From NCBI GenBank assembly GCA_028717685.1, contig JAQUNI010000001.1, positions 143,451 through 207,450 on the forward strand: DNA of 64,000 nt, in the 5' to 3' direction. Numbering within the stretch: position 1 is the first letter of the stretch; each line of letters begins with the position of its first letter. Both the position numbers and the translations under genes were made by a program. Source of the DNA: Patescibacteria group bacterium (GTDB lineage: Bacteria; Patescibacteriota; JAQUNI01). Below the pieces are notes generated by a model that was given only the letters and a program-made list of their open reading frames with translations, did not search any database and was not told the DNA's origin. Of this stretch, positions 1,331 through 38,157 are shown piece after piece.

Positions 1331-1375
1331 AAGTTAAAAGTTAAAAGTGAAAAGGTAAAAGTAAATGCTTTTATT
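1331..1375 (-). promoter_or_regulatory. CUUUUAA-type heptamer leader array directly upstream of the hpf start codon
   Basis: The coding strand reads acttttaccttttcacttttaacttttaacttttgtct followed by ATG. There is no Shine-Dalgarno sequence. The same array precedes ftsW, atpB and atpA. Confidence 0.5.
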
Positions 1376-1377
1376 TC

Positions 1378-2334
1378 TTATTCAAATCCAATAAATTGAA
1401 CCTCGGTTTCTAAAATTATTCTGTATTTTTTGTACACTTCTTTTCGCACTAAATCAATTAAATCCAAAACATCTTTGGCTTTGGCTTCTCTCTCATTCAC
1501 AATGAAATTGGCGTGCTGCTCGGAAATTGCCGCTCCCCCCATCGTCTTATTCTTTAAGCCCAGTTTTTCAATCAAACAAGCCGCCTTGATTTCACCATAC
1601 TGAACGCATTCAGATGGCACATTTTTTAAAAACCGTTCTCCTTGCTTTAAAGGAATATTTTTAAAAACCGAACCCGCGCAATTCTTATAAGGATGACGCG
1701 CCCGCACTGCTTTAGTCCTTTCAATCTTTTCTAAAATTCTTTCTTTATCTGGAGCGGGCTCAAAGACAAAGAGAGCGTCTAGAATAATATTGTGATTTTT
1801 TTTAAAGGCACTTTCCCGATAGCCAAATTGACACTCCTTTTGGGTATAAATTTTGACCTGCGAATGCTTCGGATCTAAAACCCAAACGGTCTTGACTTTT
1901 TCACCGATAAAATGTCCAAAGGCGCCCGCATTGCCATAAATCGCGCCGCCCACTGTGCCGGGAATGCCAGAGAGATCCTCCAGACCCGCCAAACCTTGAT
2001 TTAATGATTCTCGGATTAACGCTCCCAAAGCCAAACCCGCGCCACAATGAATTTCTCGGCCGCGGCATTCTAGTTCTTGATTGGCAATTTGAATCACTAA
2101 ACCCCGAAAACCGCTATCAGCCACAAGAACATTGCTCCCGCCTCCCAATGTATAATAAGGCAATTTAAAATCCTGGGCTACATCTACCGCCTTTATTATA
2201 TCCTTTTTGTTTTTAGCCGTAAAAAAATAATCTGCCGGTCCCCCAATTTTAAAAGTAGTATATTTTTTTAAATCTTCACTAATCCTTAAACCAGCTAATT
2301 CTTTTCTTAAACCCTTTGAAAAAATGTCTATCAT
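1378..2334 (-). CDS. murB: UDP-N-acetylenolpyruvoylglucosamine reductase
   Basis: 318 aa. An FAD-binding domain (TLGGGSNVLVADSGFRGLVI) and a MurB C-terminal domain are present. It sits in the dcw cluster context next to murC. Confidence 0.9.
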   Translation of the reverse strand: MIDIFSKGLRKELAGLRISEDLKKYTTFKIGGPADYFFTAKNKKDIIKAVDVAQDFKLPYYTLGGGSNVLVADSGFRGLVIQIANQELECRGREIHCGAGLALGALIRESLNQGLAGLEDLSGIPGTVGGAIYGNAGAFGHFIGEKVKTVWVLDPKHSQVKIYTQKECQFGYRESAFKKNHNIILDALFVFEPAPDKERILEKIERTKAVRARHPYKNCAGSVFKNIPLKQGERFLKNVPSECVQYGEIKAACLIEKLGLKNKTMGGAAISEQHANFIVNEREAKAKDVLDLIDLVRKEVYKKYRIILETEVQFIGFE

Positions 2335-2487: not shown

Positions 2488-2706
2488 ATGGAGGAAATTG
2501 AAATGGATAACATTGTGGATGCCTATGTTGTATCTACAGTTGGAGGAAAAATAGACTGGTACTATTGCCTAATCAAAGACACAGGGAAAAAAATCCTAGC
2601 CCAGGCAAAGCATCAGCAAACGGAAATCCCAAAGGAAACGAAGGTCAAGATCAAACTTGCCACTAATAATGATACCATGGGGACAATAACGGAAATAGCA
2701 CATTAA
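2488..2706 (+). CDS. Small hypothetical protein (72 aa)
   Basis: An ORF in the murB-murC gap on the opposite strand, with a weak upstream purine-rich stretch (ggaaaggg). No recognisable family. Confidence 0.25.
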   Translation: MEEIEMDNIVDAYVVSTVGGKIDWYYCLIKDTGKKILAQAKHQQTEIPKETKVKIKLATNNDTMGTITEIAH

Positions 2707-2789: not shown

Positions 2790-4124
2790 TCATAATCCCT
2801 GGTTTTTTAATACTGTTATCAATCGAGGAGTTAACTGATTGATATCCCCCGCGCCCATAATCATGACTACATCGTTACGACGTATATTCTTCAATAAATA
2901 ATGGATGATTTCTGAAAAATGTTCCGAATAAACCGCTTGGGGGCGTTTTCTGCTTATTTCCCGCGCCAGCTTTTGGCTTAAGACGGTTAAATTCGCTTTA
3001 CTGATTTCATCGCGACCCAAAACACCAAAAATTTTCGTAATCATCACACGATCCGCGTCTTGGAAAGCCTCGCTGAATCCCCGAAACAATTTCTCCGTGC
3101 GCTGAATTTGGTGAGGCTGATAAACACACCAAATTCTTCGCTTGCCATATTTCTGCCGCGCCGCCCTCAAGGTCGCCCGAATTTCCGTCGGATGATGAGC
3201 ATAATCATCTATAACTGTCACTTCTTTATCATATTTAATTTCAAACCTCCGCCAAGCGCCGGTATAGCCATCTAGAGCTTTCAAAATTATTTCTTCTTTT
3301 ATACCTAAAACCTTCCCCACTGCAAAAGCCGCTAAGGCATTTTTGACATTGTGCTCGCCGGTAATTTTTAAAGCATGCTCTATTGCCTTCCGCGGTCCTT
3401 TTTCATAATCAATGATTTTGATTCCTTTCTTAACAATGAAACAATGAAACAATGAAACAATATTACTAACGGCAATCAAAAAACCACCTTGCGGCAATAA
3501 TTTCACAAAATTCTTAAAAGCCGCTTGAATATCTTTTAGGTCTTTATAATAGTCAAGGTGGTCCTCTTCAATGTTTGTAATCACGATAATATCTGGATGA
3601 TAATTCAAAAAAGCTCTTTTGTATTCGTCCGCTTCAATCACTAAATATTTGCTTTCGCCCAAACGCGCGTTCGCATTATTTAACTCTTTTAACTTGCTGC
3701 CAATAATAATTGCGGGGTCTAATCCGGCTTTTAACAATATTAAAGAAATCATTCCGGTGGTTGTGGTTTTTCCGTGGGTGCCGGAAACGCAAAGCGTAAA
3801 ATATTTTTTGGTAAGTTCTCCCAGAGCTTCCGGATAAGTGAGACTTCTAATGCCTCGTGCTTTCGCTTCCCGCAATTCAGAATTATTTTCGGAAATGGCT
3901 AAGTTATAAACCACCAAATTAGTATTTAAAGGCAAATTTCCCTTTTGATGTTTGCCAATCTTGACTTGCGCGCCTAATTTTCTTAAATCCTTTATCGTTT
4001 CCGAATCCGCTAAATCTGAACCCGAAATCTTGTATCCTTTTTCTAAATAAATCCGCGCTAAGCCCGAAATTCCAATCCCGCCAATGCCGATAAAATGGAT
4101 TTTCACTTTTTTCTTTATTGACAT
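2790..4124 (-). CDS. murC: UDP-N-acetylmuramate--L-alanine ligase
   Basis: 444 aa. Contains the N-terminal GIGGIGISGLA motif and the Mur ligase P-loop GTHGKTTTTGMI. It also contains an in-frame 8-bp x3 tandem repeat (aacaatga) at 3431-3460. Confidence 0.92.
   Translation of the reverse strand: MSIKKKVKIHFIGIGGIGISGLARIYLEKGYKISGSDLADSETIKDLRKLGAQVKIGKHQKGNLPLNTNLVVYNLAISENNSELREAKARGIRSLTYPEALGELTKKYFTLCVSGTHGKTTTTGMISLILLKAGLDPAIIIGSKLKELNNANARLGESKYLVIEADEYKRAFLNYHPDIIVITNIEEDHLDYYKDLKDIQAAFKNFVKLLPQGGFLIAVSNIVSLFHCFIVKKGIKIIDYEKGPRKAIEHALKITGEHNVKNALAAFAVGKVLGIKEEIILKALDGYTGAWRRFEIKYDKEVTVIDDYAHHPTEIRATLRAARQKYGKRRIWCVYQPHQIQRTEKLFRGFSEAFQDADRVMITKIFGVLGRDEISKANLTVLSQKLAREISRKRPQAVYSEHFSEIIHYLLKNIRRNDVVMIMGAGDINQLTPRLITVLKNQGL
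3431..3460. repeat. Tandem 8-mer repeat (AACAATGA x3.5) inside the murC coding sequence
   Basis: aacaatgaaacaatgaaacaatgaaacaat is translated in frame as VSLFHCFIV. Related TGAAACA palindromes occur at 18318-18412 and 39801-39850. Confidence 0.7.
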
Positions 4125-4229
4125 ATAATAAAATATGTTCTATATTCAATGGATTGTTTCTATTGTTTTTGTTCTTTGTAATATATCATATATTGAGGGT
4201 ATTTAACTGCGAAGCGGGAGGTATGGATA

Positions 4230-4670
4230 ATGGCAAAAAGACGAAAAATAGAGATATTATTACTGGCGGCTGCAATAATAGGGATATGGGTGTTTAGTCT
4301 TTACCCCGATCCACCCATAAGAAAGCTATCTTACCAAGAAAAAAGATTCGGCATGATCTTAACAGGAAAGAAATATGTGGACTGCCGAAGTAAGCTACAC
4401 ATCACCTATAAAGATTGGGGGGCAGATGGCAATCTGGATGAGGCGGAAAGAAACAAAATCATCAACGGCAATCTAGTAAAGGAAAAGGTCATATTCACCG
4501 AGACGCAAAGTGAGGCTGAAAAAGGAAACGCGGATGTTGGGGAATTTAACCATTTGGGGAATTTTGTCCCTAAGGATCCTCATAAACGCTATGTCTGGAA
4601 CGAATCACCAGAAGGGCAAACATGGCAAGAAAAGTTTGAAAAATTATTAGAAGATTATAATCGACAATAG
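4230..4670 (+). CDS. Hypothetical membrane-anchored protein (146 aa)
   Basis: Has an N-terminal TM helix (IEILLLAAAIIGIWVFSLY). A GGGAGG Shine-Dalgarno sits 12 nt upstream. It is plus-strand, antisense to the surrounding dcw genes. Confidence 0.5.
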   Translation: MAKRRKIEILLLAAAIIGIWVFSLYPDPPIRKLSYQEKRFGMILTGKKYVDCRSKLHITYKDWGADGNLDEAERNKIINGNLVKEKVIFTETQSEAEKGNADVGEFNHLGNFVPKDPHKRYVWNESPEGQTWQEKFEKLLEDYNRQ

Positions 4671-4680
4671 GAGGGACAGA

Positions 4681-5283
4681 ATGCAAAAATGGTTGTTGAT
4701 TCTTTGCTTTGCAGCCGTAGTCATGTTCTGCTTTAAGTTGAACACAGCAATTCAAGAAGAGGAGTTCCGATCGCGCAATCTCCTCAATAAAATGCTGGAT
4801 TTGACAGAAGACGCATCGCGTTATGTCAAACCGACAGAGGGAGATTGGAAATATTTTTCTGATCTCGGCTGGGCATTTATGCCGACTGACGGCAAGAACT
4901 GGGCGTATTGGCGGGACAAGCAAGAAAAGGCGCAATTTTTCACCCTCCTTGACCTTGCTCTGTACAAAAATCAGAACAATTTTTATCTACGCCCTTTCCA
5001 ATATCGCAAGGCATATGCCTTCAATCCCGTAAGTATTGATCGAAAAGAGATTCAGAAAGTTGATAATATTCAAAATGAATATGGGAGAATTTGGATAGAA
5101 GTTCAAGAGCCAGGCAGACTGGTTTTCATTGGTCTCACCAAACCTTTAAAATTCCGTCAACCGCGCAAACTCCATTTGGAGATATCAAATCATTATCTTA
5201 TAGAACGCACAAAAGAATCCGGTGCTTTTTACTGGAAGCCAGTAGGTAAATTAAGTACTAAAACTGAGGCAGAAATTCAATGA
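4681..5283 (+). CDS. Hypothetical secreted protein (200 aa)
   Basis: Has a signal-peptide-like N-terminus (MQKWLLILCFAAVVMFCF). An AGGAGG Shine-Dalgarno sits 8 nt upstream. It is followed by a rho-independent terminator. Confidence 0.55.
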   Translation: MQKWLLILCFAAVVMFCFKLNTAIQEEEFRSRNLLNKMLDLTEDASRYVKPTEGDWKYFSDLGWAFMPTDGKNWAYWRDKQEKAQFFTLLDLALYKNQNNFYLRPFQYRKAYAFNPVSIDRKEIQKVDNIQNEYGRIWIEVQEPGRLVFIGLTKPLKFRQPRKLHLEISNHYLIERTKESGAFYWKPVGKLSTKTEAEIQ

Positions 5284-5290
5284 CTTACAA

Positions 5291-5318
5291 CGCGAGTGTT
5301 CCATCACTCGCTTTTTTT
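5291..5318 (+). terminator. Rho-independent terminator after the plus-strand gene pair
   Basis: A cgcgagtg-ttcca-tcactcgc hairpin followed by TTTTTTT. Confidence 0.6.
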
Positions 5319-5409
5319 ATCCTGCATCTTTTTGAATAATACCAGCCAGCCCAGGTTAAAGGACAGGGTGGATGAATCTGACTACCCTGTCTGACGAAAG
5401 GTGTGGGAT

Positions 5410-6504
5410 TTATTTTTCCAAAATCTCGGAAGCGATCTTTCGAGCCGCATCAAACTTAGCTAAACCTTTAGCTTTCTTTCTCATTGTTTCAAGCTGATTG
5501 GGATTTTTAAATAAACTTGTAATCAAACTAATCAATTTCCGCGAAGTTAAATCTTTTTGTTCTAAAATAATACTCGCCCCTCTTTTTTCAAAAATCTTAG
5601 CATTAGCGAGCTGGTGATCAGAAGCAGCAGACGGCAAAGGGATTAAAATTGACGGCTTAGCGCAAGCCGCAATCTCCGCCAAAGAATTAGCACCGGCGCG
5701 GGAGATGATAAGATCAGCAATAGAATAAGCCAAAGCTATTTTCTCCCCATCTAAATAAGAATAAGACCGATAGTCCCTCATTTTTCCCTTTGCTGGTTCA
5801 AGTCTCTGACTTGAACCGGATTGTACCCCTGTCAAATGAACAATCTGATATCCCTTTAACTTTCCCAATAATTTCCGAATTAAATCGTTAATAAACCGCG
5901 CGCCTTGGCTGCCGCCCATCGCCAAAATAGTTGGCTTGTCTTTCGACAAATGAAAAAAATCGCGCGCCTTTACAGGGTCACCCTTCAAAATTTCCTGCCG
6001 CACAGGATTGCCAGTAAAAATATATTTACCCTGTAAAGACTTGGCAGATAGCTTCTCCGCAGAATGCGCATTAAATCCCAATAAAACTTTACTCGCCAAG
6101 TGCGCCGCGATTCTATTTGCAAGCCCTGGCACCGCATCAGATTCATGGACAATAATTTTTTTATGCAAAATCCAAGCGGCGATTACGACGGGTAGACTCA
6201 CATAACCACCCTTACTAAAAATCACATTGGGCTTAAATCCCAGAATCAAGAAAAAACTTTGAAAAATCCCCGCCGGAATCTTGAAAAAATCAATCAAATT
6301 CCAAAAAGAAAAATAACGCCTGAACTTGCCACAGGCGATTTTTTGAAAAGGGATATGATTTTCTCTCGCTGCTCGCTCCTCGGGATGGTCATCTCCCAGC
6401 CAAAACAATTTCAAATCTTTCCTTTGTCTCACGAGTTCCCGAACCACAGCGACAATAGGAATTGTATGACCGCCCGTACCGCCGCCAGTAAGAAGAATAC
6501 GCAT
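5410..6504 (-). CDS. murG: Undecaprenyldiphospho-muramoylpentapeptide beta-N-acetylglucosaminyltransferase
   Basis: 364 aa. Starts MRILLTGGGTGGHTIPIVAV, with a GT28 N-terminal and C-terminal fold. Adjacent to ftsW. Confidence 0.92.
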   Translation of the reverse strand: MRILLTGGGTGGHTIPIVAVVRELVRQRKDLKLFWLGDDHPEERAARENHIPFQKIACGKFRRYFSFWNLIDFFKIPAGIFQSFFLILGFKPNVIFSKGGYVSLPVVIAAWILHKKIIVHESDAVPGLANRIAAHLASKVLLGFNAHSAEKLSAKSLQGKYIFTGNPVRQEILKGDPVKARDFFHLSKDKPTILAMGGSQGARFINDLIRKLLGKLKGYQIVHLTGVQSGSSQRLEPAKGKMRDYRSYSYLDGEKIALAYSIADLIISRAGANSLAEIAACAKPSILIPLPSAASDHQLANAKIFEKRGASIILEQKDLTSRKLISLITSLFKNPNQLETMRKKAKGLAKFDAARKIASEILEK

Positions 6505-6588: not shown

Positions 6589-7680
6589 CTACACTGTCTG
6601 TTTTGAGATATTTGTCAAAATCCCTACCGCGACCAAAGAAATCACCATAGCAGATCCGCCATAACTAATCAAGGGCAAAGGAACCCCCGTTAAAGGGATT
6701 AAACCACTTAAAGCCAGAATATTCATAAAAGCCTGAAAACAAAGCCAAGAAGTGATCCCGCCAGCAAGCAACCGACCAAAGCTATCAGGACTCCCACGCG
6801 CAATCTTAAAACCTTGGTAAGTTAAAAAAGAAAAAATAAACACTAAAAAGGAAACCCTGAGGAAGCCCAGCTCCTCACAGATGACCGCAAAAATAGAATC
6901 TCCGGCGACCTCGGGTAAATAACTATATTTCTGTCTAGACTGGCCAAAACCCAAACCCCATAACCCTCCCGAACCTTCCGCAATTAGAGCTTGATTTAAA
7001 TGGTAGCCAATCCCCTGGGGATCCGTTTCGGGATTGCGGAAAACAACAAAACGATTCATCCTATAAGGCGCAATCACAATCAGAAGCCAAAAAGTTAAAG
7101 CCAAGATACCGCCAATCATCGCTAAATGAGAGAAGCGGGCGCCGGCTAGATAGAAAACAATCACAGAGGTGAGTAAAATAATAGATAAAGTGCCTAGGTC
7201 TGGTTGCAACACAATTAAAAAACTCACCACCCCCAAAATAGCTAAAAAGGGCAGAAAACCATATTGGAAATGGGGGACCTGCTCGCGTTTTTTTGAAAGC
7301 CAAGTAGCCAGATAGATGACAAAGGTGAGTTTAAGTAATTCTGTGGGTTGAAAAGAGAAATGACCGGCTCCAATCCAGCGCCGCGCTCCCTTAAAACCCA
7401 ATCCGATTCCAGGAATAAACACTAAAATTAAAAGGATCAAAGAAATAATTAAAGCGAGAAAAGCCCATTTTTGCCACTTGTGATAATCAATTTTCGCAAA
7501 GATGAGCCAAGCGATAAAACCTAAAAGCGCACCAAAAAAAAATTGGTGGCGCAGATAATAAGCATTGTTGCCGAATCTTTCATAAGACAAAACAGAGCTT
7601 GCGGAACCAATCATCACCAGTCCAAAAATCACCAAGGCGAAAACAGTAATAATCAAGGAATAATTCGGTTTGTGCATCAA
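6589..7680 (-). CDS. ftsW: SEDS-family peptidoglycan glycosyltransferase FtsW/RodA
   Basis: 363 aa, polytopic membrane protein with an FtsW/RodA C-terminal signature (GIPLPLISYGGSAMV). Located upstream of murG in the dcw order. Confidence 0.85.
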   Translation of the reverse strand: MMHKPNYSLIITVFALVIFGLVMIGSASSVLSYERFGNNAYYLRHQFFFGALLGFIAWLIFAKIDYHKWQKWAFLALIISLILLILVFIPGIGLGFKGARRWIGAGHFSFQPTELLKLTFVIYLATWLSKKREQVPHFQYGFLPFLAILGVVSFLIVLQPDLGTLSIILLTSVIVFYLAGARFSHLAMIGGILALTFWLLIVIAPYRMNRFVVFRNPETDPQGIGYHLNQALIAEGSGGLWGLGFGQSRQKYSYLPEVAGDSIFAVICEELGFLRVSFLVFIFSFLTYQGFKIARGSPDSFGRLLAGGITSWLCFQAFMNILALSGLIPLTGVPLPLISYGGSAMVISLVAVGILTNISKQTV

Positions 7681-7725
7681 ATCAAAGTTAAAAGTTAAAA
7701 GTGCAAAGTTAAAAGTTCAGTTCAA
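7681..7725 (-). promoter_or_regulatory. CUUUUAA-type heptamer leader array upstream of ftsW
   Basis: The coding strand reads gaacttttaactttgcacttttaacttttaactttgatttg followed by ATG. Confidence 0.45.
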
Positions 7726-7890: not shown

Positions 7891-8859
7891 TCATTTCTCT
7901 ATTTCCTTCCTCGTCAACAACCCTGATTGCGCCCCGTAGTCTTTGAGCACGCTGGCGCCATTTTTCACTCCCCACAAAAGCGCTGTCCTTATGTCTTTAC
8001 CCAAAGCAATAGCTCCCAAAAAGGCGGCAGAAAAGGCATCGCCAGCGCCCGTCGTATCCGCAACCTTACTCGCTTTTATCGCCTCTTGAAAGTTTAGTTC
8101 TTTACCATCATAAGCCGATGCTCCTCTGGCCCCTTCTGTGATAACCACGATCTTGGGACCCCAAGAAAAAAGTTCGCGCGCAATATTACCAGCAAGCAAA
8201 GAAAAATTTTTATTCTTGCTTAAAACAAGCTCAATCGCCTCATCCAAAGTTAAAATTAAAATTTCCACATTACGCAAGATCTCTCGCAACCCTTCATACC
8301 CTGAAGACAATTGCGCCAACCCAGGATTAAAGTAAATTTTCATTTTCTTCTTTGCCGCCAAATCTGTTATATCCCTCAACAACTTTAACCATTCGCCAGT
8401 GAGGGAAGAAATGTAGATCCATTTGCTCGCAAATCTTTTACGTCCCAGATTTAAATTATTGCTTGCATTTTTGTCCACAAACACAACATGATCTCCGCCG
8501 CCCTTCTCATCTATAATAACCACGGAGAGATCAGTCCTCTCTTTTCTATCCCAAGAAATGAGCGTCCCGGAAACTTTCGCGGCTTTAAGATTTTTCTTAA
8601 TCTTCAGACCATCCAAGTCGCGGCCCAAGTTCACCCGGCAAGCTACGCGCAAACCTAATTTTGCTAATCCTACCGCCACATTGCAAGCTCCACCTCCAAA
8701 ATTATCATAAGTATGCAGAACCGGAATTTTGGCGCCATATTCAAAACCCAAAAGCTTATTCGCCAATGGATCATGATTGGTGGTAATTAGCTTGCCTGCT
8801 GCGGTGCGGATCACGATATCGCGGGTTGAGCCGCCAAAAGTTACCACATCGTAGTGCAT
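7891..8859 (-). CDS. PfkB-family carbohydrate or nucleoside kinase (ribokinase-like)
   Basis: 322 aa. Has an N-terminal GG motif and the C-terminal TTGAGDAFSAAFL anion-hole motif characteristic of PfkB kinases. Confidence 0.8.
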   Translation of the reverse strand: MHYDVVTFGGSTRDIVIRTAAGKLITTNHDPLANKLLGFEYGAKIPVLHTYDNFGGGACNVAVGLAKLGLRVACRVNLGRDLDGLKIKKNLKAAKVSGTLISWDRKERTDLSVVIIDEKGGGDHVVFVDKNASNNLNLGRKRFASKWIYISSLTGEWLKLLRDITDLAAKKKMKIYFNPGLAQLSSGYEGLREILRNVEILILTLDEAIELVLSKNKNFSLLAGNIARELFSWGPKIVVITEGARGASAYDGKELNFQEAIKASKVADTTGAGDAFSAAFLGAIALGKDIRTALLWGVKNGASVLKDYGAQSGLLTRKEIEK

Positions 8860-8996
8860 AAATTTAAAATTAATCCTTCAACAAATTTCAGGATTAATGC
8901 TGAGCAAAGCCGAAGCATTAACCCTTCAGCAAAGTTCAAAAATAATATTGAACAAAGCCGAGGTATTAAAGTTTCTTTAGGAGTATTCAATCGCGA

Positions 8997-26464: not shown

Positions 26465-29400
26465 TTAATCTTCGCCTTTCTTTTCTCCCCCTTCTTTGAT
26501 TATCCACCAATTAAATTCCGTATCTTCTGACACTTCTTCCAGAGCAGAAACGGTAAAACTTTTCTCGCCCACTTCAGACAAATAAATAAATGTGGAAGAT
26601 AGTGGGGTTATACCAATAAATGAATCTTTGGTTACTTCCTCATTCTCAAAAACTGCGTCTTTTTTTCCTGCTTCAATAACACCTGTGCCTGTGATTATAT
26701 TGGTTATCTTACCTACAACCTCTAAATCACCTTTCACCACCACTTTCGGTTCGGGCACAGTGTCATTTGCTTCCCCGGGATTCAATTCCAGAATGCCAGT
26801 TTCCGAGAGAATCCTGCCCGAAACAAGCTTTAGCTCCCCTTTCACCTTTACATTCCCGTCCTTATCTACCGCGAAGTTCTCGCTATTAATCTCTAAGCCT
26901 GTGGCAGCATCCAGAACAAGGTATTTGTTGGGGTCGCCGATTATTACTTTGTCCTCCACAATCTTTACAATCTGCTGTAAATTCTGTGTTTCTTCTTCTA
27001 GTTCTTGAATCCTGGCGGTATTCGCTTGGTTGGATTCCATTACTGTTAAAATAGAGGCGCTTAAAGTGTTTAATTGATTGGAGACATTCTCCAGATTGCT
27101 CAAACTGTCTACTAGGGTTTGGAGGGTGCTTTGCAGTGATTCTAGATCAACTTGCTCGGAAGAAGCCCCCTCTACCATTTGTGCTGGCGCTGTGTCAGCA
27201 TCATTTTCCGTAATTTGTGATTCGTAATTCGTAATTCGGGTCTCCAGATCCTGAATCCTTGATTCTTGATCTTTGATTCTTGATTCTAAAGACAGAATTC
27301 CTGATTCCTGATTCCCTATCCCTAATTCCAAGCCAGTGAGACGCGAGGTCGTGTCGCCCGCGGAAATACCAAGTTCATTCTGCACTAATTGCATATTATC
27401 ATCTATGACCGATAGCTTTTGCTGCTGCTCCTTGAGCACCTCATTCTGATAAAGGGAGATCCGTTCATATTTGATTGCGTCAGGTCTGCCTTGCTCGTCA
27501 TATATTACAAGGTTAGAAAGGCCTAAAGCGTCAAATTCTTCGGCAATAAAGCCGACATCCCTCTTTCCTGTTGCTTTATCAATAAAGGAGGTAGGTCTTG
27601 CTTCTAGAATCTTGGTAAAGTCATCTTGCAGGGTCTGCACATCATCTTTGTATCGCAAAGAGGAAGTAGAACGGTAGACACTGCCCGTGGTCGTATCAAT
27701 AAACATATTGGCGGCGGAAGCGGAAGTGTCTATATTTGCAATGACAAACTTGGTGCCAGGGGCGCTCGTGCCGATACCGATCGCGCCCGTGGAGGTAATC
27801 ACGAAGGCGGGCGTTGCCCCACCTAAAGTAGCAGCAGTTTCAATCTTGAATTTATCGCTATCGCTGTCATCAACTCCCACGGAGAATTTAGTAGAATCAG
27901 CAATTTTAAAGTCTAAAATAGGATCACCAGAAGCTTTATTTAAAGAAAGAAGATTGTCTGGCGTGCTCGTCCCGATGCCGACGTTTCCGCTCATTATGGA
28001 CATCCCGCCTTGATAGATATGATTAGTTGACACAACATTCATTTCAGATTTGCCAGAGGTCATTACTTGGTGTGTGCCACCACTCCAATTCCAAGACACG
28101 GCGACAAACAAACCATTGCCATAGGTTACTGACATCCACCAATTTGATTCGGGCGCGGTTCTAGTTGTCCAGGTGATGCCATCGGGTGAAGTCATTACTC
28201 GGTTAGTGTCAGTTAGACCAACGGCGACAAACAAACCATTGCCATAGGTTACTGAATTCCAAGAATCTGCTACTGCGGTTCTAGCTGTCCAGGTGATACC
28301 ATCAGGCGAAGTCATTACTCGGTGTGTGCCACTGTGACCAACTGCCACAAACAAACCATTGCCATAAGTTACTGCATACCACGTATTTGCTTCGGCTGCG
28401 GTTCTAGCTGTCCAGGTAATGCCATCGGGCGAAGTCATTACCCGGTTGGTGCCATTATAAGCGACGGCGACAAACAAACCATTGCCATAGGTTACTGAAT
28501 ACCACGAATTTGCTTCGGGCGCGGTTCGGGCTGTCCAAGTGATGCCGTCAGGCGAAGTCATTACTCGGTGTGTGCCGCTGTAAGCAACTGCGACAAACAA
28601 GCCATTGCCATAAGTTACTCCTTCCCATTTATTTGCTTCGGCCGCGGTTCGGGCTGTCCAAGTGATGCCATCAGGAGAAGTCATTACTCGGTGTGTGCCA
28701 GTTTCAGCGACTGCCACGAATAAACCATTGCCATAAGTGACCCAATTCCACCCATTTGCTTCGGCTGCAGTTCGGGCTGTCCAGGTGATGCCATCGGGCG
28801 AAGTCATTACTCGGTTGGTGCCATTATAAGAGACGGCGACAAACAAGCCATTGCCATAAGCTACCCCATTCCACGTATTTGCTTCGGTCGCGGTTCGGGC
28901 TATCCAGGAAGTTCCTTTGGATATGATGTTGCCAACAACTTCTAACTTCTCGCCTGGTGTTGTCGTCCCCACCCCAAGCCTGTTATTCGTGTCATCCCAG
29001 TAAAAATTAGCGTTATCTTGAGCCAGCGCGCCTGCGGCATCAGTGAAAACCACCGAGCCTTGGGTAAAACCAGGGGTAATGGTGCCGATAACATTGCCAT
29101 AGATTGTGCCGTCAACCTCTAAAACATCCTCTACATAGAGGTCTCCGTCTCCTGTGGCATAATTCACTGTTCCGCCATTGCCAATAAAGACGTTGCGGTT
29201 AAACCAAGCGTCTTGATGGACGCGCAGAGTGCCTGCTGTTTCCACATCCCCTGTTTTGCCGTTAACAATAAATTTGTCATCGTCTATGTAGATTCCGCCA
29301 TTTGCCTCTAGAATGCCGGTGAGCTTGGTCTGACCATCTACGGTAAGATTATTGTAAAGATGGGCATCTTTAATCACAATCAGTTCTTGACCGACTTTTA

Positions 29401-30409
29401 CATTACCTGCTACATCAAGCTTATGCTGGGGGTATTTAGTGCCAATGCCTACTTGATCATTAGTAGTATCAACATAGAGAGCCTTTGTTCCGACCGTGAA
29501 GTTGCCCCCAACATCCACACTCTTTTGCAATTCAGTTGACCCTTTAACTTCAATACCACTACCAAAATATACTTTCCCAAGCAGGCTCAAGTCCTGTGAT
29601 GTGCTGGCACCGTTAGTGGTAACATTCTGTAAATTGATATTATTGGAAGAGGCATTAGAGACTATCTTGGGGATAGAGTCGCCTAAAACAATCTCTGAAG
29701 ATGGATGGGATTCCGATGTTTGTTCCGTAGGGGAAGAGGCTTGCGGTTTAATCTTGCTGTTTAAGGCTAGATCGTCTGTTTGAAGATTATGGATTATGGA
29801 TCCTGTATTTTGGTCAACATTTTTTAGTAAACTACTAAATACTTTTAATGGGAAATATCCTCTTTCCGCAGAAACACCTCTCACAAAAACCAGAGTATTG
29901 GCGAAAAGGACTATGAGGATCAAAAGAGTTAAGAAAACGGGTCTAAAACGAGGAGGCGGAACAACAAATCTGGACCAAAAGGACAACGATGGTTTTAGGT
30001 TTTTCAGGATTTTATTCTTGAAAACGGATTTGAAGCGGAGCAATGTGGAAGATGATTCAGATTGGGGGGATAACAATAATTTCAGGTCTTCAAAAACTTT
30101 GAAGCTCTTGATTGGCGCCTTTACCCTGTTAGACAGTAACCCCCTTAAAGCCTCTGGTCTCTTACGGAATAAACATCTAATGGAGCCAGGGCAGTTTGTT
30201 AGCCCCGTTAGAAATAAATTTCTAAACGGGGTTAGAGAACAAGGTTCTCTAACGGGGTTTACTGACCCTAACGGTTTACAGGTGAAACCGAGAGCAAGAC
30301 ATCGGGAGCGTATCTTAAACATAAGATGAGAATATTTTTTATGAATACAAAACCCACCCCTTGAAAACAGAGAAATAATTTTTGAAACTATAGGGCTTTT
30401 TGTTTGCAT
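26465..30409 (-). CDS. Giant cell-surface protein. Layout: N-terminal signal anchor, ~7 Asp-box-like beta-propeller repeats, GIGT tail-fibre-like motifs, Peptidase_S74-like intramolecular chaperone domain, C-terminal coiled coil
   Basis: 1314-aa ORF. It contains repeats of ~40 aa (NRVMTSPDGITWTARTAAEANxWxxVTYGNGLFVAV), GIGT motifs (VGIGTKYPQHKLDVAGNV, IGIGTSAPGTKFVIA), a chaperone-like segment (SLRYKDDVQTL...GFIAEEFDALGLSNLVIYDEQG) and heptad-rich ESRI repeats. A family B repeat at 30203-30258 lies inside the 5' end of the ORF, so the true start is probably downstream, for example TTG 29987 or TTG 29923 just before the VFLTLLILIVLFANTLVFV anchor. Confidence 0.7.
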   Translation of the reverse strand: MQTKSPIVSKIISLFSRGGFCIHKKYSHLMFKIRSRCLALGFTCKPLGSVNPVREPCSLTPFRNLFLTGLTNCPGSIRCLFRKRPEALRGLLSNRVKAPIKSFKVFEDLKLLLSPQSESSSTLLRFKSVFKNKILKNLKPSLSFWSRFVVPPPRFRPVFLTLLILIVLFANTLVFVRGVSAERGYFPLKVFSSLLKNVDQNTGSIIHNLQTDDLALNSKIKPQASSPTEQTSESHPSSEIVLGDSIPKIVSNASSNNINLQNVTTNGASTSQDLSLLGKVYFGSGIEVKGSTELQKSVDVGGNFTVGTKALYVDTTNDQVGIGTKYPQHKLDVAGNVKVGQELIVIKDAHLYNNLTVDGQTKLTGILEANGGIYIDDDKFIVNGKTGDVETAGTLRVHQDAWFNRNVFIGNGGTVNYATGDGDLYVEDVLEVDGTIYGNVIGTITPGFTQGSVVFTDAAGALAQDNANFYWDDTNNRLGVGTTTPGEKLEVVGNIISKGTSWIARTATEANTWNGVAYGNGLFVAVSYNGTNRVMTSPDGITWTARTAAEANGWNWVTYGNGLFVAVAETGTHRVMTSPDGITWTARTAAEANKWEGVTYGNGLFVAVAYSGTHRVMTSPDGITWTARTAPEANSWYSVTYGNGLFVAVAYNGTNRVMTSPDGITWTARTAAEANTWYAVTYGNGLFVAVGHSGTHRVMTSPDGITWTARTAVADSWNSVTYGNGLFVAVGLTDTNRVMTSPDGITWTTRTAPESNWWMSVTYGNGLFVAVSWNWSGGTHQVMTSGKSEMNVVSTNHIYQGGMSIMSGNVGIGTSTPDNLLSLNKASGDPILDFKIADSTKFSVGVDDSDSDKFKIETAATLGGATPAFVITSTGAIGIGTSAPGTKFVIANIDTSASAANMFIDTTTGSVYRSTSSLRYKDDVQTLQDDFTKILEARPTSFIDKATGKRDVGFIAEEFDALGLSNLVIYDEQGRPDAIKYERISLYQNEVLKEQQQKLSVIDDNMQLVQNELGISAGDTTSRLTGLELGIGNQESGILSLESRIKDQESRIQDLETRITNYESQITENDADTAPAQMVEGASSEQVDLESLQSTLQTLVDSLSNLENVSNQLNTLSASILTVMESNQANTARIQELEEETQNLQQIVKIVEDKVIIGDPNKYLVLDAATGLEINSENFAVDKDGNVKVKGELKLVSGRILSETGILELNPGEANDTVPEPKVVVKGDLEVVGKITNIITGTGVIEAGKKDAVFENEEVTKDSFIGITPLSSTFIYLSEVGEKSFTVSALEEVSEDTEFNWWIIKEGGEKKGED
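30203..30258. repeat. Family B palindromic unit (CCCCGTTAGAAAT-aaa-ATTTCTAAACGGGG + TTAGAGAAC-aa-GGTTCTCTAACGGGG)
   Basis: Two adjacent perfect hairpins. Copies or relatives lie at 48381-48427, 8997-9105, 21436-21470 and 56204-56240. Confidence 0.65.
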
Positions 30410-30581
30410 TTTGGGAGATATGAATTCCGTATCGGTTTCTAGCTTTTATACTAAAAAATTGAGAGAGTAAGTCTCTACTGAAAATCTCCTAGTAGATTTA
30501 CTGGTTTAAGTACATTACTATTATATAATACCTCCCCCCACTCGTTTTTACAAGAATGTTATCCACAAAGTAATATAAAAG

Positions 30582-30613
30582 ACTAACCCTTAAGGGCGAG
30601 GGTTAGTCTTCCA
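30582..30613 (-). terminator. 32-bp direct repeat copy 2 (same hairpin), downstream of the FG-GAP/L,D-transpeptidase gene
   Basis: actaacccttaagggcgagggttagtcttcca is identical to 26316-26347. On the minus strand the hairpin is followed by tcttttat. Confidence 0.5.
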
Positions 30614-30868
30614 CCGCGTTTTAGTTTGAATTTTTTAGGCGCGGACTGCCTCTCATTTTTAGGCAGCGACGCCTGTTAAATTTTACGGTGGCGGAGAAAC
30701 CACGTCTTTCGCGTTCCCGACGTCACCGTAAAATTATTCTATGCACTCTTTCATCTTAATAAATACATCAAATTTTTGTTTCTTAATTTTTAATTTTTAA
30801 CTAATTTTTATTTACTTAATTTTTATTGTTATTATAAATAAAACAATAATTCAATAACTAAATAAAAA

Positions 30869-32455
30869 TTAGTCTTGAACAATTACCGGCGTTCCTATTG
30901 CCGCCCAATCGTAAAGCTGTTTAGCCGGTCCCACACCGAGGCGCACGCAGCCATGAGAAACGCGCACACCTAAATGATTAGCCCCTTCCTTATAACCGCC
31001 CGGCCATTCGGGCAATTCATGAATGCCATGACCTTTAGTAGTAAAAGCCATCCAATAGGGCATATATAACCCATATTTAGAAGACCAGGCGCGCGGATTT
31101 TTACTTAAAATGTGAAAATTACCCAAGGGAGTGCCCATACCAGGCCGACCTGTAGATACCTTAGTGTCTAAAAATATTTTCTCTCCTTCATAAGCCTTCA
31201 AATTTTGCTCTGAAATGTCAATCACAATCTTCTTTAAACCATTGAAATTGTAGTTCAAAGCAGGCAAGATAATAATTTCCGCAATATGATCGCCATCTAA
31301 ATCTGCCGCCGCCAGGTTCACCCCGCCATTAAAATTCTTTTCAAAAGGATAATAACTGTAACCAGTCTGGTTCATCGCTTGGGAGCTAACGCCACTCACC
31401 AGACTTGGTTCCTTAAGATTACCTCCCACCCCCTCCTTTCTCCCCGCTCCGGGCAAGGGGAGAGCCGCTCCCATTCTCTCTTTTTCAGAATCAGTATCTT
31501 CTTGCGCGATTTTCACCCCGCCGATATTATAAGGGGAACTCTTCTGAATCTCGCCCAAGTGATTGAACGCCCGCACATGCGGCGCGCCGCCCGGACCAGC
31601 GCCAGCCAAAATCTCACTCTTGCCGTCAAAATTCAAATCCGCCGCGGCGATATCCACGCCGCCCTTGAAACCTTGATCAAAGGCGATGAAGCTGGATTCT
31701 AAAAGGCCATTACTCTTATATACTTTAATCTGGGCTTTATCCTGACGCGCGGCAGAAACGATAATCTCCGGAAGTTTATCTCCGTCCACATCCGCCGCGG
31801 CGATATCCACGCCACCCTTGAAGTCGCGCGGAAAAGGATAAAGGACAAAATCAGTCCGCGTACCATTTCCTTTAAAAACACGCACCTCGGAGCGCGTACC
31901 CTGCCCTCGCGAAACCAAAATTTCCGCATTATGATCGCCGTCTAAATCCGCAAGGGCAATGTGCACGCCGCCCCGAAACGCCGCTGGTTCTCCAAAAAAA
32001 TCCGCTAAAACAGTTTTGTTTAGGTCTGCCTTGTAAACCTTGATATGGGCGCTCTCGCGGGAAGCAACCGCCACCGCAATTTCATCCTTTTGGTCGCCAT
32101 TAACATCCCCACAAGCCACATCAACGCCTCCCAAAAATTCTGCGTCAAAAGGATAGATTACATAATTGGTCTTTTTGCCTCGATAGTCATAAACGCGCAC
32201 TTCGCTTCTCCGACCCGGTCCTGAACCAATCACAATTTCCTTATGACCATCACCATTTAGATCCCCCACGCAAACCGAAACCCCGCCGCGGAAATCATTT
32301 TCAAATAAATTAAAATCCTGGCCTTGTTTAAGGTCCACAGCTTTGAAAATACGACCGAGACCAAAATAATCGCGAGCCTCTACACTTTTTAATGGCCCAA
32401 AAATCATTCCTGACATTAAAACTGCCGTAAAAATTATTGTTTTTGTTTTTGTCAT
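30869..32455 (-). CDS. Secreted FG-GAP repeat beta-propeller protein fused to a C-terminal L,D-transpeptidase (YkuD) catalytic domain
   Basis: 528 aa with a signal peptide. Six or more FG-GAP-like repeats are present (GDLNGDGHKEIVIGSG, ADLDGDHNAEILVS, ADVDGDKLPEIIVSA, ADLNFDGKSEILAGAG, ADLDGDHIAEIIIL). The C-terminal HGIHELP...GVRVSHGCVRL contains the LDT active-site His and Cys motif. Confidence 0.8.
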   Translation of the reverse strand: MTKTKTIIFTAVLMSGMIFGPLKSVEARDYFGLGRIFKAVDLKQGQDFNLFENDFRGGVSVCVGDLNGDGHKEIVIGSGPGRRSEVRVYDYRGKKTNYVIYPFDAEFLGGVDVACGDVNGDQKDEIAVAVASRESAHIKVYKADLNKTVLADFFGEPAAFRGGVHIALADLDGDHNAEILVSRGQGTRSEVRVFKGNGTRTDFVLYPFPRDFKGGVDIAAADVDGDKLPEIIVSAARQDKAQIKVYKSNGLLESSFIAFDQGFKGGVDIAAADLNFDGKSEILAGAGPGGAPHVRAFNHLGEIQKSSPYNIGGVKIAQEDTDSEKERMGAALPLPGAGRKEGVGGNLKEPSLVSGVSSQAMNQTGYSYYPFEKNFNGGVNLAAADLDGDHIAEIIILPALNYNFNGLKKIVIDISEQNLKAYEGEKIFLDTKVSTGRPGMGTPLGNFHILSKNPRAWSSKYGLYMPYWMAFTTKGHGIHELPEWPGGYKEGANHLGVRVSHGCVRLGVGPAKQLYDWAAIGTPVIVQD

Positions 32456-33790: not shown

Positions 33791-34414
33791 TTAGGCTTGC
33801 GCCGCGATCATAGCTTTTACTTTCATCAGCCGCGTCAAATTCCCTCTCTCTTGTTCATCTAATTTCATTGTAATCTCGCGGATCGCGGACTGCAAATTTG
33901 GCACTAAAACATATTCCAAAGAATTTACTCTCCGCCGCGTTTTCTCAATCTCGCGGCTAAGCATTAAAATCGCTTTTTCAGTCTGCGCCAAGCGGACCAT
34001 TTTTTCTAAAGAAGTCTCAAATCCTTTCAAACTTGTATCCAATTCCGCGACAGTATCCAAATAACCATAGCAAATCGGTTCTCCTTCCTTTTGAACCTCA
34101 AAAAGCGGCACTTTGATATTCATTATATTCTTCTCGCTTGTTTGCAGGGAAAGCTTCATCTTGGACAACATCAAAGCCGCCTCTAGGCTTTGGGCTGGCA
34201 TTTCCGCGGCGGCGAAAGCAAAAGACAAAAAAGCTTCGCTCAATGATTTTTCTACCGCTTCGCGAACATCCTTGGCTTCGCGGACTACCTGCATAAAATC
34301 TTTCATTAGTCCGTCCCGTTTCTCTTTTAATAATTTATGCCCTCTTTGCGCGACTTTGAGCCGCTTTTTCAATTTAAGCAGCTCCACGCGCGTGGGGTTG
34401 ATTTTGACTTGCAT
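33791..34414 (-). CDS. atpD: V/A-type ATP synthase subunit D
   Basis: 207 aa. Starts MQVKINPTRVELLKLKKRLKVAQRGHKLLKEKRDGLMKDF, the canonical V-type D subunit N-terminus. Confidence 0.85.
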   Translation of the reverse strand: MQVKINPTRVELLKLKKRLKVAQRGHKLLKEKRDGLMKDFMQVVREAKDVREAVEKSLSEAFLSFAFAAAEMPAQSLEAALMLSKMKLSLQTSEKNIMNIKVPLFEVQKEGEPICYGYLDTVAELDTSLKGFETSLEKMVRLAQTEKAILMLSREIEKTRRRVNSLEYVLVPNLQSAIREITMKLDEQERGNLTRLMKVKAMIAAQA

Positions 34415-34507
34415 TATTTTAGAACCCCTCCCCGCCCGCAGGTCTTGAGAGGGAGAAATTATTATCCCCTTCTGGTCTCAAGGGAGTTAGGAGGAGAAAA
34501 GAGGGAG

Positions 34508-35935
34508 TTATCTCTTAAAATACTTCTCAATCATTTCCGGCTTCACTCTCTTTAACTCGGACTGCGGTAAAATAGACAAAAGTTCCCAGCCCAAACTCAA
34601 TGTTTGAATAATGTCACGATCCTCATATTCACCTTGGCGGACGAATTTGTCTTCAAAGAGAGAGGCAAACTTTAAATATTTTTTATCGGTTTCATCCAAA
34701 CTCTCTTCGCCCAAAATCACGGCTAATTCTTCCACTTCCTTACCGCGGGCATAAGAAGCGAATAACTGATTTAAAACACCGGAATGATCCTCGCGGGTTT
34801 TACCTTCGCCGATTCCTTTGTCTTTAAGCCGGGAAAGGGAAGGTAAAACATCCACGGGCGGAAAAATCCCCTTGCGGTGCAATTCGCGGCTAAACATAAT
34901 TTGGCCTTCGGTAATGTAACCGGTTAAATCGGGCACGGGATGGGTTTTGTCGTCCTCGGGCATGGAAAGGATCGGAATCTGCGTGATGGAACCGGGCTTG
35001 CCTTTAATGCGCCCCGCGCGTTCATAAATTGTAGAAAGGTCGGTATAAAGATAACCCGGATAACCACGCCGACCCGGAATTTCTTTGCGCGCCGCCGAAA
35101 CTTCGCGCAAGGCTTCACAATAATTAGTCAGATCAGACATAATGACTAGTACATCCATTCCCTTTTCAAAAGCCAAATATTCAGCGCAGGTTAAAGCCAT
35201 TCTGGGCGTTGCAATCCGCTCCACCACGGGATCATTAGCAAGGTTAATAAACAGCACCGAACGCTCAATCGCTCCGGTTTTCTTAAAATCATTTTGAAAA
35301 AAATTCGCCTCATCAAAAGTGATACCCATCGCCACAAACACCACCGCAAACTTCGTCTCTTTTCGGTCTTTATTCCGTGATTCGTGATTCGTGATTCGTG
35401 ATTCGGTATGCCGTAAATCCCAGCGCATCTTTGCCTGCCTCGCGATTTGAGCCGCAAGGCGCGCGTGCGGCAGACCAGCGCCCGAAAAAATAGGCAGTTT
35501 CTGACCACGCACCAGCGTGTTCATGCCGTCAATCGTGGAAACGCCGGTTTGAATAAATTCATCGGGATAAGAACGGGCATAAGGATTTAAAGGCAAACCA
35601 TTGATATCTAATTCTTGGTCTGGAATAATTCTAGGTCCGCCATCAATCGGCTTGCCCGCGCCAGAAAACACCCGACCTAGAATATCCTCGGATACCGGCA
35701 GTCTCAAACCTCGTCCCAAGAATTTGACCTTGGTGCCAGCACGCGGCACGCCTTGCGGCGCTTCAAAGAGCTGGATTAAGGTGAGCTCGCGTCCGGCTTC
35801 CAGAACCTTGCCTAGTATTTTGCGACCTTCTTTTGTTTCCACTTCCACTAATTCTTCATACTTTGCGCCTTCAATCTTTTCCAAAATTATTAAAGGTCCC
35901 GCAATTTCTTTCACTGTTTTATAAGCTTTGGACAT
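34508..35935 (-). CDS. atpB: V/A-type ATP synthase subunit B (regulatory), with an in-frame heptamer-repeat insertion
   Basis: 475 aa with a V-type B fold. At 35374-35401 the sequence (gattcgt)x4 is translated as [12 protein letters not shown] inside an approximately 25-aa loop insertion. Confidence 0.92.
35374..35401. repeat. Heptanucleotide tandem repeat (GATTCGT x4) inside the atpB coding sequence
   Basis: gtgattcgtgattcgtgattcgtgattcg. The unit length of 7 means any copy-number change would shift the frame. Confidence 0.8.
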
Positions 35936-35937
35936 AA

Positions 35938-35985
35938 AAATAAAGTTAAAAGTTAAAAGTGAAAAGGTAAAAGCTATTGCACATC
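35938..35985 (-). promoter_or_regulatory. CUUUUAA-type heptamer leader array upstream of atpB
   Basis: The coding strand reads gcaatagcttttaccttttcacttttaacttttaactttatttttATG. Confidence 0.45.
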
Positions 35986-35987
35986 AA

Positions 35988-37739
35988 TTACACCACTTTC
36001 TCTATCTTCTCCCAAACCTTTTTATACTCTGCCTCTATTTTATCTTCGGGAATAAATTTGAGTCGGGCAATATCTTCAATAATTTCCTGCTTAAATAATG
36101 CCTTCAAGTCCAACTCGTTAACTTTGGAAAGCGCTAAATCGTAGAAATCAATAATAATCTTTAACATACCGTATTGTTTAGATAAGGAGGTATAGGTATC
36201 AATTTCATCAAAGGCATTCTGATGCAAAAAGTCTTCCCGAATCATCCGGGCAACGCGCAAGATTAATTGGTCCCGCGAACCTAAAGCGTCAAAACCGACC
36301 AAACGCACAATCTCTTCCAGATTGGCTTCTTCCTGCAAAATTTCCATTGCTCTTTGACGATACTGGTTAAAATCCGCGGCGACATTATTTTTAAAATACT
36401 CCTCTAAATTTTCAGTGTATAAAGAATAGCTGGTCAGCCAATTAATCGCTGGGAAATGGCGCTTGTAGGCGAGCGCTGAATCCAAAGCCCAAAAAACCTT
36501 GGTAACCCGCAAAGTGTTTTGCGTCACCGGTTCAGAAAAATCGCCGCCCGGCGGCGAGACCGCGCCAATCACGGACAAAGAGCCAACGCGCTTCTCCGAT
36601 CCTAAACACTCCACGCGGCCAGCGCGTTCATAAAACGCCGCCGTCCGCGTGCCGAGATACGCAGGATAACCTTCTTCACCGGGCATCTCCTCCAGCCGTC
36701 CTGACATTTCCCGCAAAGCCTCGGCCCAGCGCGAAGTGGAATCCGCGGTAAGCGCGACTTTGTAACCCATATCACGATAATATTCAGCGATGGTAATCCC
36801 GGTGTAAATAGACGCTTCGCGCGCCGCCACAGGCATATTAGAAGTATTGGCAATCAAAATCGTGCGCTCCATTAATTGTCTTCCCGATTTCGGATCTTTC
36901 AATTCCGGAAATTCAATCAAAACATCGGTCATCTCATTCCCCCGCTCCCCGCAGCCGATAAAAACGATAATCTCCGCATCTGCCCATTTAGCTAACTGAT
37001 GCTGAACCACAGTCTTCCCGGACCCAAAAGGACCCGGCACGCAAGCTGTGCCGCCTTGGGCAAGCGGGAAAAAGGTATCAATCACTCTCTGTCCTGAAGC
37101 CATTAAAGTATCAATGGGTAAATTTTGTTTCACCGGCCGCGGAATCCGAATCGGCCAACGCTGCAACATTGTAATCTCTTGTTCGCCTTGCGCTGTTTTA
37201 ATCTTCGCGACAATATCTTCCACTTTGGATTGACCAGCCTTTATTGCCGTGATTTTCCCCCGCGCACCCTGAGGCACCATAATTTTATGCATAATCAAGG
37301 AGGTTTCTTGAACCGTACCTAGAATATCGCCTTCCTTCACAACATCCCCTTCCTTTTTTACAGGCTTAAAATCCCATTCCTTTTCGCGGTCAATCCCCGG
37401 TACTTCCATACCCCTCGCAATAAAAGCGCCAGACTTGGCAAAAATCAAATCTAATGGTCTTTGAATGCCGTCATAGATGGCTTTAATCATTCCCGGTCCC
37501 AGTTCCACAGACAAAGGTCTGCCAGTTGTCTCCACTAACTCTCCCGGTCCAACACCGGCGGTGTCCTCATATACTTGAATGGAGGCTTGGTCTTGGTTTA
37601 AGCCAATAATCTCGCCGATTAATTTTTTCTCCCCCACTTTGACCACATCAAACATCCGCGCATTAGGGATGCCTTCGGCGATCACAAGCGGACCGGAAAC
37701 TTTAACAATGATTCCCTGTTTATTTTCTAAATTAGACAT
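35988..37739 (-). CDS. atpA: V/A-type ATP synthase subunit A (catalytic)
   Basis: 583 aa. Contains the Walker A motif GPFGSGKT and the non-homologous region typical of V/A-type A subunits. Confidence 0.92.
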
Positions 37740-37740
37740 A

Positions 37741-37790: not shown

Positions 37791-37794
37791 CTAA

Positions 37795-38124: not shown

Positions 38125-38157
38125 CCGTAGAGACGTTGCACTGCAACGTCTCTACTT

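Follow-up and report, generated by a model that had tools for sequence, protein, structure and literature searches.

Two genes antisense to the murG-murC junction in a small Doudnabacteria-related subclade, with a possible accessory role in cell wall synthesis or division

What are two plus-strand genes doing between murG and murC, among division and cell wall (dcw) genes that lie on the opposite strand? The question was raised by a 64,000-nucleotide stretch of a Patescibacteria group bacterium (assembly GCA_028717685.1; referred to as the window), in which genes A and B are placed antisense to their flanks. Their products are recorded at NCBI as the hypothetical proteins PHW01_00785 and PHW01_00790, the two records of the pair, on a contig of 722,217 bp. 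An earlier reading made from the letters alone (the sequence-only reading) had taken them for secreted or membrane protein genes inserted into the dcw cluster, by acquisition or for a lineage-specific envelope function. The best explanation as a whole, which we hold at somewhat less than even confidence, is that A and B would form a two-gene operon, with a promoter embedded in the start region of murC, two Shine-Dalgarno (SD) sequences and a terminator of its own. Its antisense insertion at the murG-murC junction would date back to the last common ancestor of a small subclade related to Doudnabacteria, with vertical inheritance under purifying selection since then, and the products of the operon would be an accessory factor for division or peptidoglycan synthesis that works on the outside of the membrane. 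The unit and its flanks are the following:

4230-4670, plus strand: gene A, open reading frame (ORF) of 146 amino acid residues
4681-5283, plus strand: gene B, ORF of 200 amino acid residues
4118-4146, plus strand: candidate promoter of A-B, a pattern match with 11 of 12 positions matching (-35 TTGACA, 17-nt spacer, -10 TATATT)
4216-4221, plus strand: SD of gene A, GGGAGG, 8 nt upstream of the ATG
4669-4675, plus strand: SD of gene B, AGGAGGG, overlapping the TAG stop of A and 6 nt upstream of the ATG
5292-5318, plus strand: intrinsic terminator of the A-B unit, GCGAGTG-TTCCAT-CACTCGC (7-bp GC-rich stem, 6-nt loop, T7 run)
2790-4124, minus strand: murC, the left flank (Pfam)
5410-6504, minus strand: murG, the right flank, convergent with B (Pfam)
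6589-7680, minus strand: ftsW, beyond murG (Pfam)
1378-2334, minus strand: murB, beyond murC (Pfam)

The two ORFs were found exactly where the sequence-only reading had drawn them, and its assignment of the flanks was borne out by Pfam. A plus-strand unit is unusual here, since 53 of the 58 ORFs obtained by greedy picking over the whole window lie on the minus strand. As for the proposed insertion into the dcw cluster, the antisense insertion stood; what surrounds it is a dcw fragment only (ftsW-murG, murC and murB), adjoining glycolysis genes.

Graded MurG relatives of the window were chosen and their genomic contexts compared. A scan of genome contigs with MurG returned two loci only. Identities are to the window protein:

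L001: MurG 78%, A and B between murG and murC
L002 to L005 and L012: MurG 68%, A and B between murG and murC
L013: MurC 65%, A and B between murG and murC
L019: MurG 59%, murG-murC gap of 26 bp, nothing between
L016: MurG 58%, murG-murC gap of 13 bp, nothing between
L018: MurG 57%, murG-murC gap of 13 bp, nothing between

The neighborhood of the window recurs in four sister genomes, of which three have murG and murC next to each other. These three loci without the pair share with the window, in whole or in part, a wider neighborhood in the order DUF4012, enolase, iPGM, PfkB, ftsW, murG, murC, antisense small gene, murB and secA/hpf. A and B were found together only in the subclade whose MurG is at least 68% identical, and the genomes carrying both clustered together in a neighbor-joining tree of MurC with 86% bootstrap, the deeper branches being without resolution. 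Because syntenic loci lack the pair at this point and its carriers group in the MurC tree, A and B are an insertion confined to a small subclade of Doudnabacteria-like, ultra-small organisms. The synteny comparison suggested by the sequence-only reading thus gave a lineage-specific insertion, with murG and murC 13-26 bp apart in the relatives without it. Its premise that murG and murC are normally contiguous holds for these three relatives and fails across Patescibacteria (L007, L017, L020 and L021, described below). Phylum-wide conservation together with ordinary composition had been named as what would refute it; the composition was ordinary, and conservation was found in the small subclade only.

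The signals of the unit were then compared between loci. The -35 element of the candidate promoter overlaps the murC start codon (4122-4124, minus strand), and TTGACAT is invariant in all five aligned loci carrying A and B, or B. In the SD region of A, GGAGGT is kept in L001 and L002. A 4-bp overlap of A and B in L002 suggests that their translation may be coupled. The clean terminator that had been described earlier was confirmed: its hairpin with the T7 run folds at -12.2 kcal/mol (z = -5.16 versus shuffles) and is kept in L001, where the loop alone is altered. The predicted duplex energies with the anti-SD were -11.6 kcal/mol for A and -10.7 kcal/mol for B, ranking 2nd and 6th among the 58 ORFs, and -6 kcal/mol or better was reached by only 11 of the 58 (∼19%). 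No SD was found for murB, murC, murG and ftsW, with duplex energies of about zero. The contrast in SD style with the neighboring genes therefore stood locally and proved not to be unique; strong SDs could not be kept as a mark of foreign origin, given that they are common to about 19% of the window ORFs. They are a minority style of this genome, not a foreign one. A reduced use of the anti-SD and SD has been described for part of the Parcubacteria (PMC9297842).

The possibility that the two ORFs are spurious and non-coding, for which their want of annotation alone would speak, was refuted by the conservation pattern. In a collection of 5.8 billion proteins, A had four homologues and B seven, at 55-84% identity, with 55 invariant columns in the A alignment and 70 in the B alignment. 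The ratio of nonsynonymous to synonymous divergence (dN/dS) was 0.17-0.25 for B, compared with 0.17-0.23 for murG and 0.05-0.08 for ftsW; for A it was 0.35, from one pair, two other pairs being saturated at synonymous sites. Since these values (0.17-0.35) are near that of murG, and since frames, SDs and terminator are conserved across genomes, A and B are real genes under purifying selection.

Synonymous divergence (dS) between the window and L001 was uneven (0.28 in ftsW, 0.44 in murG and 0.75 in A and B), and FtsW was 96% identical between the two loci where the other proteins were 55-78% identical. Strand effects, codon selection or recombination are possible reasons for the uneven dS.

The A and B proteins are predicted to be single-pass, membrane-anchored proteins of N-in/C-out topology with extracytoplasmic domains. 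One hydrophobic segment of ∼19 residues follows a short positive N-terminus in A, in B and in every full-length homologue. The A protein starts with MAKRRK, followed by a transmembrane helix (residues 7-25, in agreement with the membrane anchor that had been assigned to the 146-residue protein), a YPDPPI linker and an ectodomain of ∼115 residues. The B protein starts with MQK, followed by a transmembrane helix (residues 6-24) and a juxtamembrane helix to about residue 48; its ectodomain contains 15.7% Trp, Phe and Tyr and is all-beta in a low-confidence AlphaFold2 (AF2) model. The AF2 models were built on shallow alignments, with a mean predicted local distance difference test (pLDDT) score of 57 for B and 54 for A. 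The folded parts of both proteins would face the cell exterior. A signal peptide had been claimed for the 200-residue protein; the N-terminal hydrophobic stretch was found, and it is better read as a signal anchor than as a cleaved peptide. B was considered as a Sec-cleaved substrate of signal peptidase I and rejected, as inspection of the alignment gave NTA, NTT, TQG or GRV after the h-region and no conserved small-x-small (AXA-like) site past it. The signal anchor is favored because this cleavage motif is not conserved and because residues 2-48 are drawn by AF2 as one continuous helix.

A loop in A (residues 62-73, window 4413-4448), DWGADGNLDEAE, resembles by eye the calcium loop of EF-hands, for which the pattern of 12 residues D1-x-[DNS]3-x-[DNS]5-G6-x-[ILV]8-x-x-x-E12 was taken as the criterion. 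All A homologues have D62, D66, D70 and E73 without exception, and most retain G67 and L69; position 3 is Gly, position 6 is Tyr in one lineage, and there was no Pfam EF-hand match.

Whether the pair could be recently acquired mobile, phage or defence cargo was judged from composition and surroundings. The opposite strand, the promoter and terminator of its own and the strong SDs would fit such cargo, as would one relative of B (in L010) that lies among small unknown genes, one of them with a sub-threshold DUF5681 match. Against it, the GC content was 0.40 for A and 0.41 for B, the GC content at third codon positions was likewise 0.40 and 0.41, and the codon-usage z-scores were -0.94 and -0.19, so that the comparison with the neighbors, which the sequence-only reading had suggested, showed no deviation. 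No PHROGs or PADLOC matches and no IMG/VR relatives were found for A or B. The unit has no visible integrase, tRNA or repeat flanks (the tRNAs of the window lie only at ∼45.3 kb and ∼56.0 kb), and it keeps its position in genomes separated by a dS of at least 0.75. A horizontally acquired genomic island was rejected on the same grounds of ordinary GC and codon usage, no tRNA nearby and no phage or defence matches. Mobile, phage or defence cargo is therefore close to refuted, and acquisition as recent foreign DNA was not upheld: because of the ordinary composition, the missing mobility, phage or defence signal and the stable position, the pair is an old, vertically inherited insertion.

The DNA between murC and A was found to be conserved beyond what synonymous sites retain. 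Two features are added to those given above:

4125-4229: divergent intergenic region of murC and A, 105 bp
4213-4185, minus strand: candidate murC promoter by pattern match, TTCGCA-17-TATGAT

Over this spacer, the window and L001 agree at 101 of 105 aligned bases (96% identity), whereas at synonymous sites the p-distance between them is 0.47 for A and B and 0.34 for murG. No Rfam match was obtained in the spacer, and its fold was not unusually stable on either strand (z = -0.03 and -0.31), which favors constrained divergent promoter or operator DNA over a structured RNA. The idea of a riboswitch or leader RNA found no support, the folding of both putative 5' leaders being unremarkable; Rfam found two tRNAs only on the region and the whole window. 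As the insertion cuts murC off from ftsW-murG, murC must have a promoter of its own within 4125-4229. Coupled control of murC and A-B through the shared spacer is plausible from these sequence features, and expression of the pair may be coordinated with that of murC via the conserved divergent promoter region.

The spread of B was examined with a profile hidden Markov model (HMM). In a search of 1.84 billion cluster representatives, six proteins were matched: one close cluster, the four given here and, marginally and over multiple stretches, a protein of 1,651 residues.

P0012 (E ∼1e-35): in L008, a distant organism of 60.6% GC, in the order two tRNAs, B, 450 bp, mraZ-rsmH-128aa-ftsI-murE on the same strand
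P0013 (E ∼1e-33): in L009 (MurC 61% identical to that of the window), murB-murC followed 83 bp on by a divergent B, A being absent
P0014 (E 3e-9): in L010, by RmuC/TGT, an unrelated context
P0015 (E 9e-6): in L014, by an M50 protease and ArgRS, an unrelated context

A metagenome scan with the B profile returned already-known loci only, and no paralogues of A or B were found in the window or the sister loci. For A, word-indexed search, tblastn and an HMM search of all fetched loci gave no relative beyond the subclade, and a 150-residue membrane protein upstream of B in L008 was rejected as an A homologue, comparison showing no relation. Since A is without relatives outside the subclade, B appears from these searches to be the older and wider-spread element and A the later, subclade-specific partner. 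B adjoins dcw genes in three arrangements, murC-A-B-murG in the window, murB-murC-B in L009 and upstream of mraZ in L008, and at least two of the three arose independently. This adjacency is the only positive evidence on function.

The wall or division role is our inference from location, and the partnership of A and B and the co-regulation with murC are likewise inferences. The descriptive part of our explanation (the reality of the genes, the build of the operon, its insertion and restriction to a clade, the topology signals, the native composition, the orphan status and the linkage of B to dcw) is held with very high confidence. The functional part, an accessory role outside the cytoplasm, in division or wall synthesis, drawn from location only, is put forward tentatively, at best as firmly as the explanation as a whole. 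In such a role A and B might bind wall material or contact the FtsW/penicillin-binding protein synthase. The lineage-specific envelope function that had been proposed earlier is thus retained as regards the subclade insertion, the predicted extracytoplasmic location and the recurrence of B beside dcw, with the role itself left to location.

Several points weigh against this explanation. Homology or fold evidence for any function was not found across the searches. A, B and their relatives had no Pfam, NCBIfam, PHROGs or PADLOC family match; a profile search of PDB sequences gave noise at E above 1 only for both proteins; and Foldseek gave no match at E ≤ 0.001, with poor models (pLDDT 57 and 54) as the query. 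L016, L018 and L019 lack A and B at this junction, which makes core machinery unlikely. The most distant B relatives (L010 and L014, 23-24% identity) lie in non-dcw contexts, and the arrangements of the window clade and of L009 may go back to one ancestral event, leaving two independent dcw linkages. Finally, location is weak evidence of function, because the junction is variable, as seen in the following loci:

L017, 6335-6674: antisense cassette between murG and murC with an unrelated membrane ORF of 77 residues (two hydrophobic segments, GAGGT SD, intrinsic terminator)
L007 (Parcubacteria), 8074-8982: patatin-like phospholipase gene (Pfam) between murG and murC
L020, 6125-6379: antisense ORF of 84 residues just downstream of murG
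L021, 6269-6748: ORF of 159 residues just downstream of murG

In L017, as in the window, a TTGACA-17-TATATT promoter-like site overlaps the murC ATG; its MurC is 81% identical to that of L009, which carries B, and bootstrap support for L017 and L009 as sisters is 100%. In L020 and L021 (MurG 45-46%), small unknown genes, GluRS and an M23 peptidase come after murG, and murC is not among them. The point downstream of murG is thus a recurrent breakpoint of the dcw cluster in Patescibacteria; model bacteria keep their dcw genes in one of the most stable orders known (PMC8871954).

This variability bears on an alternative that we regard as a real possibility, though a lesser one, namely that A and B are generic fast-evolving surface proteins (for example, for host attachment or episymbiont surface remodelling) in a permissive dcw breakpoint. 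In its favor are the other genes found downstream of murG in L017, L007, L020 and L021 and the antisense IF-1-like gene that lies between murC and murB; the pair is dispensable in sister genomes; distant relatives of B occur away from dcw; and B evolves faster than MurC (35% versus 61% identity between the window and L009). Against generic surface proteins is the finding that B adjoins dcw genes in the window clade, in L009 and, upstream of mraZ, in the distant organism of 60.6% GC. With ∼15 dcw genes assumed in ∼1000 genes, the chance of such a position in at least two of about four lineages is ∼0.5%, a rough estimate and not a computed value. The strong conservation of the murC-A control region also speaks against them. 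The other lineage-specific genes lodged in dcw (the IF-1-like gene, the L017 77-residue gene and the L007 patatin) occupy the same junctions as A-B or its neighbors, and the L017 cassette resembles A-B in its antisense strand, promoter-like site, SD and terminator. Their products are unrelated to A and B, and B alone turns up again next to dcw genes, differently arranged, in a distant genome.

A bolder account of the same loci would be that B founds an unrecognised, fast-evolving family of Patescibacteria wall or division factors, with A as a partner and the junction as an antisense cargo slot. Different lineages would load different small envelope proteins there, and a promoter within the first murC codons would mechanically couple cargo and murC via divergent, overlapping promoters. 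We consider this unlikely.

It was also asked whether B could belong to a known type of divisome or elongasome protein (FtsQ/DivIB-, MreC- or FtsL/DivIC-like) and have diverged beyond recognition by sequence methods, which we consider improbable. The N-in transmembrane helix, the juxtamembrane helix and the beta-rich ectodomain of B are in its favor, an architecture that we take to recall MreC and, more loosely, FtsQ, and so is the linkage of B to dcw. FtsL, FtsB/DivIC and FtsQ/DivIB are likewise bitopic N-in/C-out proteins with a juxtamembrane helix, an extracytoplasmic domain and genes beside mur and fts genes. A and B differ from them in showing no sequence or profile similarity, in lying antisense to the cluster as a unit that has its own promoter and terminator, and in being non-core genes of a small subclade. 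Among the 11 members of the B family, no Pfam match to POTRA, FtsQ_DivIB_C, MreC, DivIC or FtsL was found at E up to 10, nor was there a PDB sequence match or, with the poor model, a Foldseek match. In addition, B is antisense and missing from close relatives, unlike core divisome genes, and L008 already has a 128-residue gene in the FtsL position.

The individual types were compared by their defining features. FtsQ/DivIB was defined by a POTRA domain (PF08478) and a C-terminal PF03799, bitopic N-in/C-out topology and a same-strand dcw gene, usually before ftsA. Neither family was matched by A or B (Pfam, E up to 1) or by the 11 B-family members (E up to 10); the topology signal is present in A and B, and their genes lie in a dcw fragment but antisense, between murG and murC. 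The B ectodomain is all-beta in the low-confidence model and not POTRA-like as in FtsQ/DivIB. MreC was defined by PF04085, a transmembrane helix, a coiled coil and two beta-barrel domains, with the gene beside mreB/mreD. B is similar in its predicted transmembrane helix and helix to about residue 48, followed by beta strands only; it differs in having no PF04085 match, in being shorter (200 residues) and in having no adjacent mreB or mreD, the flanks of A-B being murC and murG, then ftsW, murB and an IF-1-like ORF. The fold comparison with MreC, limited by a model of mean pLDDT 57, gave no Foldseek match. FtsL/FtsB/DivIC proteins were defined by ∼100 residues with a transmembrane helix and a leucine-zipper coiled coil (PF04999, PF04977); A and B have no such Pfam match, and their ectodomains are of 115-170 residues with predicted beta structure.

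Some further features of the window are described here. The murC and murB genes had been taken to be contiguous, which is not the case, as an antisense small gene lies between them, here and in sister genomes. In the sister genomes, this place holds one or two IF-1-like genes. The ORF in the window (2488-2706, plus strand; 72 residues) is 76% identical to its L001 counterpart and 34% identical to an 88-residue ORF in L019 that lies beside an IF-1-like (PF01176) gene. Judging from these identities, it is probably a diverged IF-1/OB-fold paralogue that escapes recognition by Pfam. The remaining features are:

5362-5391, minus strand: inverted repeat GACAGGGT...ACCCTGTC, 3' of the murG stop codon, found by eye
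1331-1361, minus strand: heptamer-repeat leader of hpf
7685-7715, minus strand: heptamer-repeat leader of ftsW
35943-35973, minus strand: heptamer-repeat leader of V/A-ATPase subunit B
37749-37786, minus strand: heptamer-repeat leader of V/A-ATPase subunit A
33791-42541, minus strand: complete-looking V/A-type ATPase operon (subunits I, c, E, C, F, A, B and D)
26465-32455, minus strand: location of the gene of a 1,314-residue protein with weak EPTP and Peptidase_S74-chaperone matches only

The fold of the inverted repeat was not significant (z = -1.36) and the repeat is absent from L001; it is possibly a weak terminator of murG. The heptamers, (CUUUUAA)n on the mRNA, stand in tandem directly before the start codons of SD-less genes. 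A 17-mer of the repeat occurs 12 times, versus 0.07 expected, and period-7 runs were found in 7 of 58 upstream regions, versus ∼1% of random 45-mers; the repeats may serve this lineage as a leader or initiation signal that does not depend on an SD. The gene of the 1,314-residue protein adjoins one for a fusion of L,D-transpeptidase (YkuD) and FG-GAP repeats, the two together forming a large surface or cell-wall module.

Patescibacteria retain a full peptidoglycan pathway in very small genomes, and, to our knowledge, the accessory proteins of their division and wall growth are largely unknown. The two families are new and orphan, and hypothetical membrane proteins are plentiful in this group. 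Because A and B are orphan, outward-facing by prediction, selected within a dcw fragment and, in the case of B, recurring beside mraZ or murC, the pair is a concrete candidate for lineage-specific division or wall machinery in Patescibacteria. If its location were merely a permissive breakpoint, it would be one more pair of hypothetical envelope proteins; even then, it would serve as a marker of the small Doudnabacteria subclade and as an example of the decay of dcw order.

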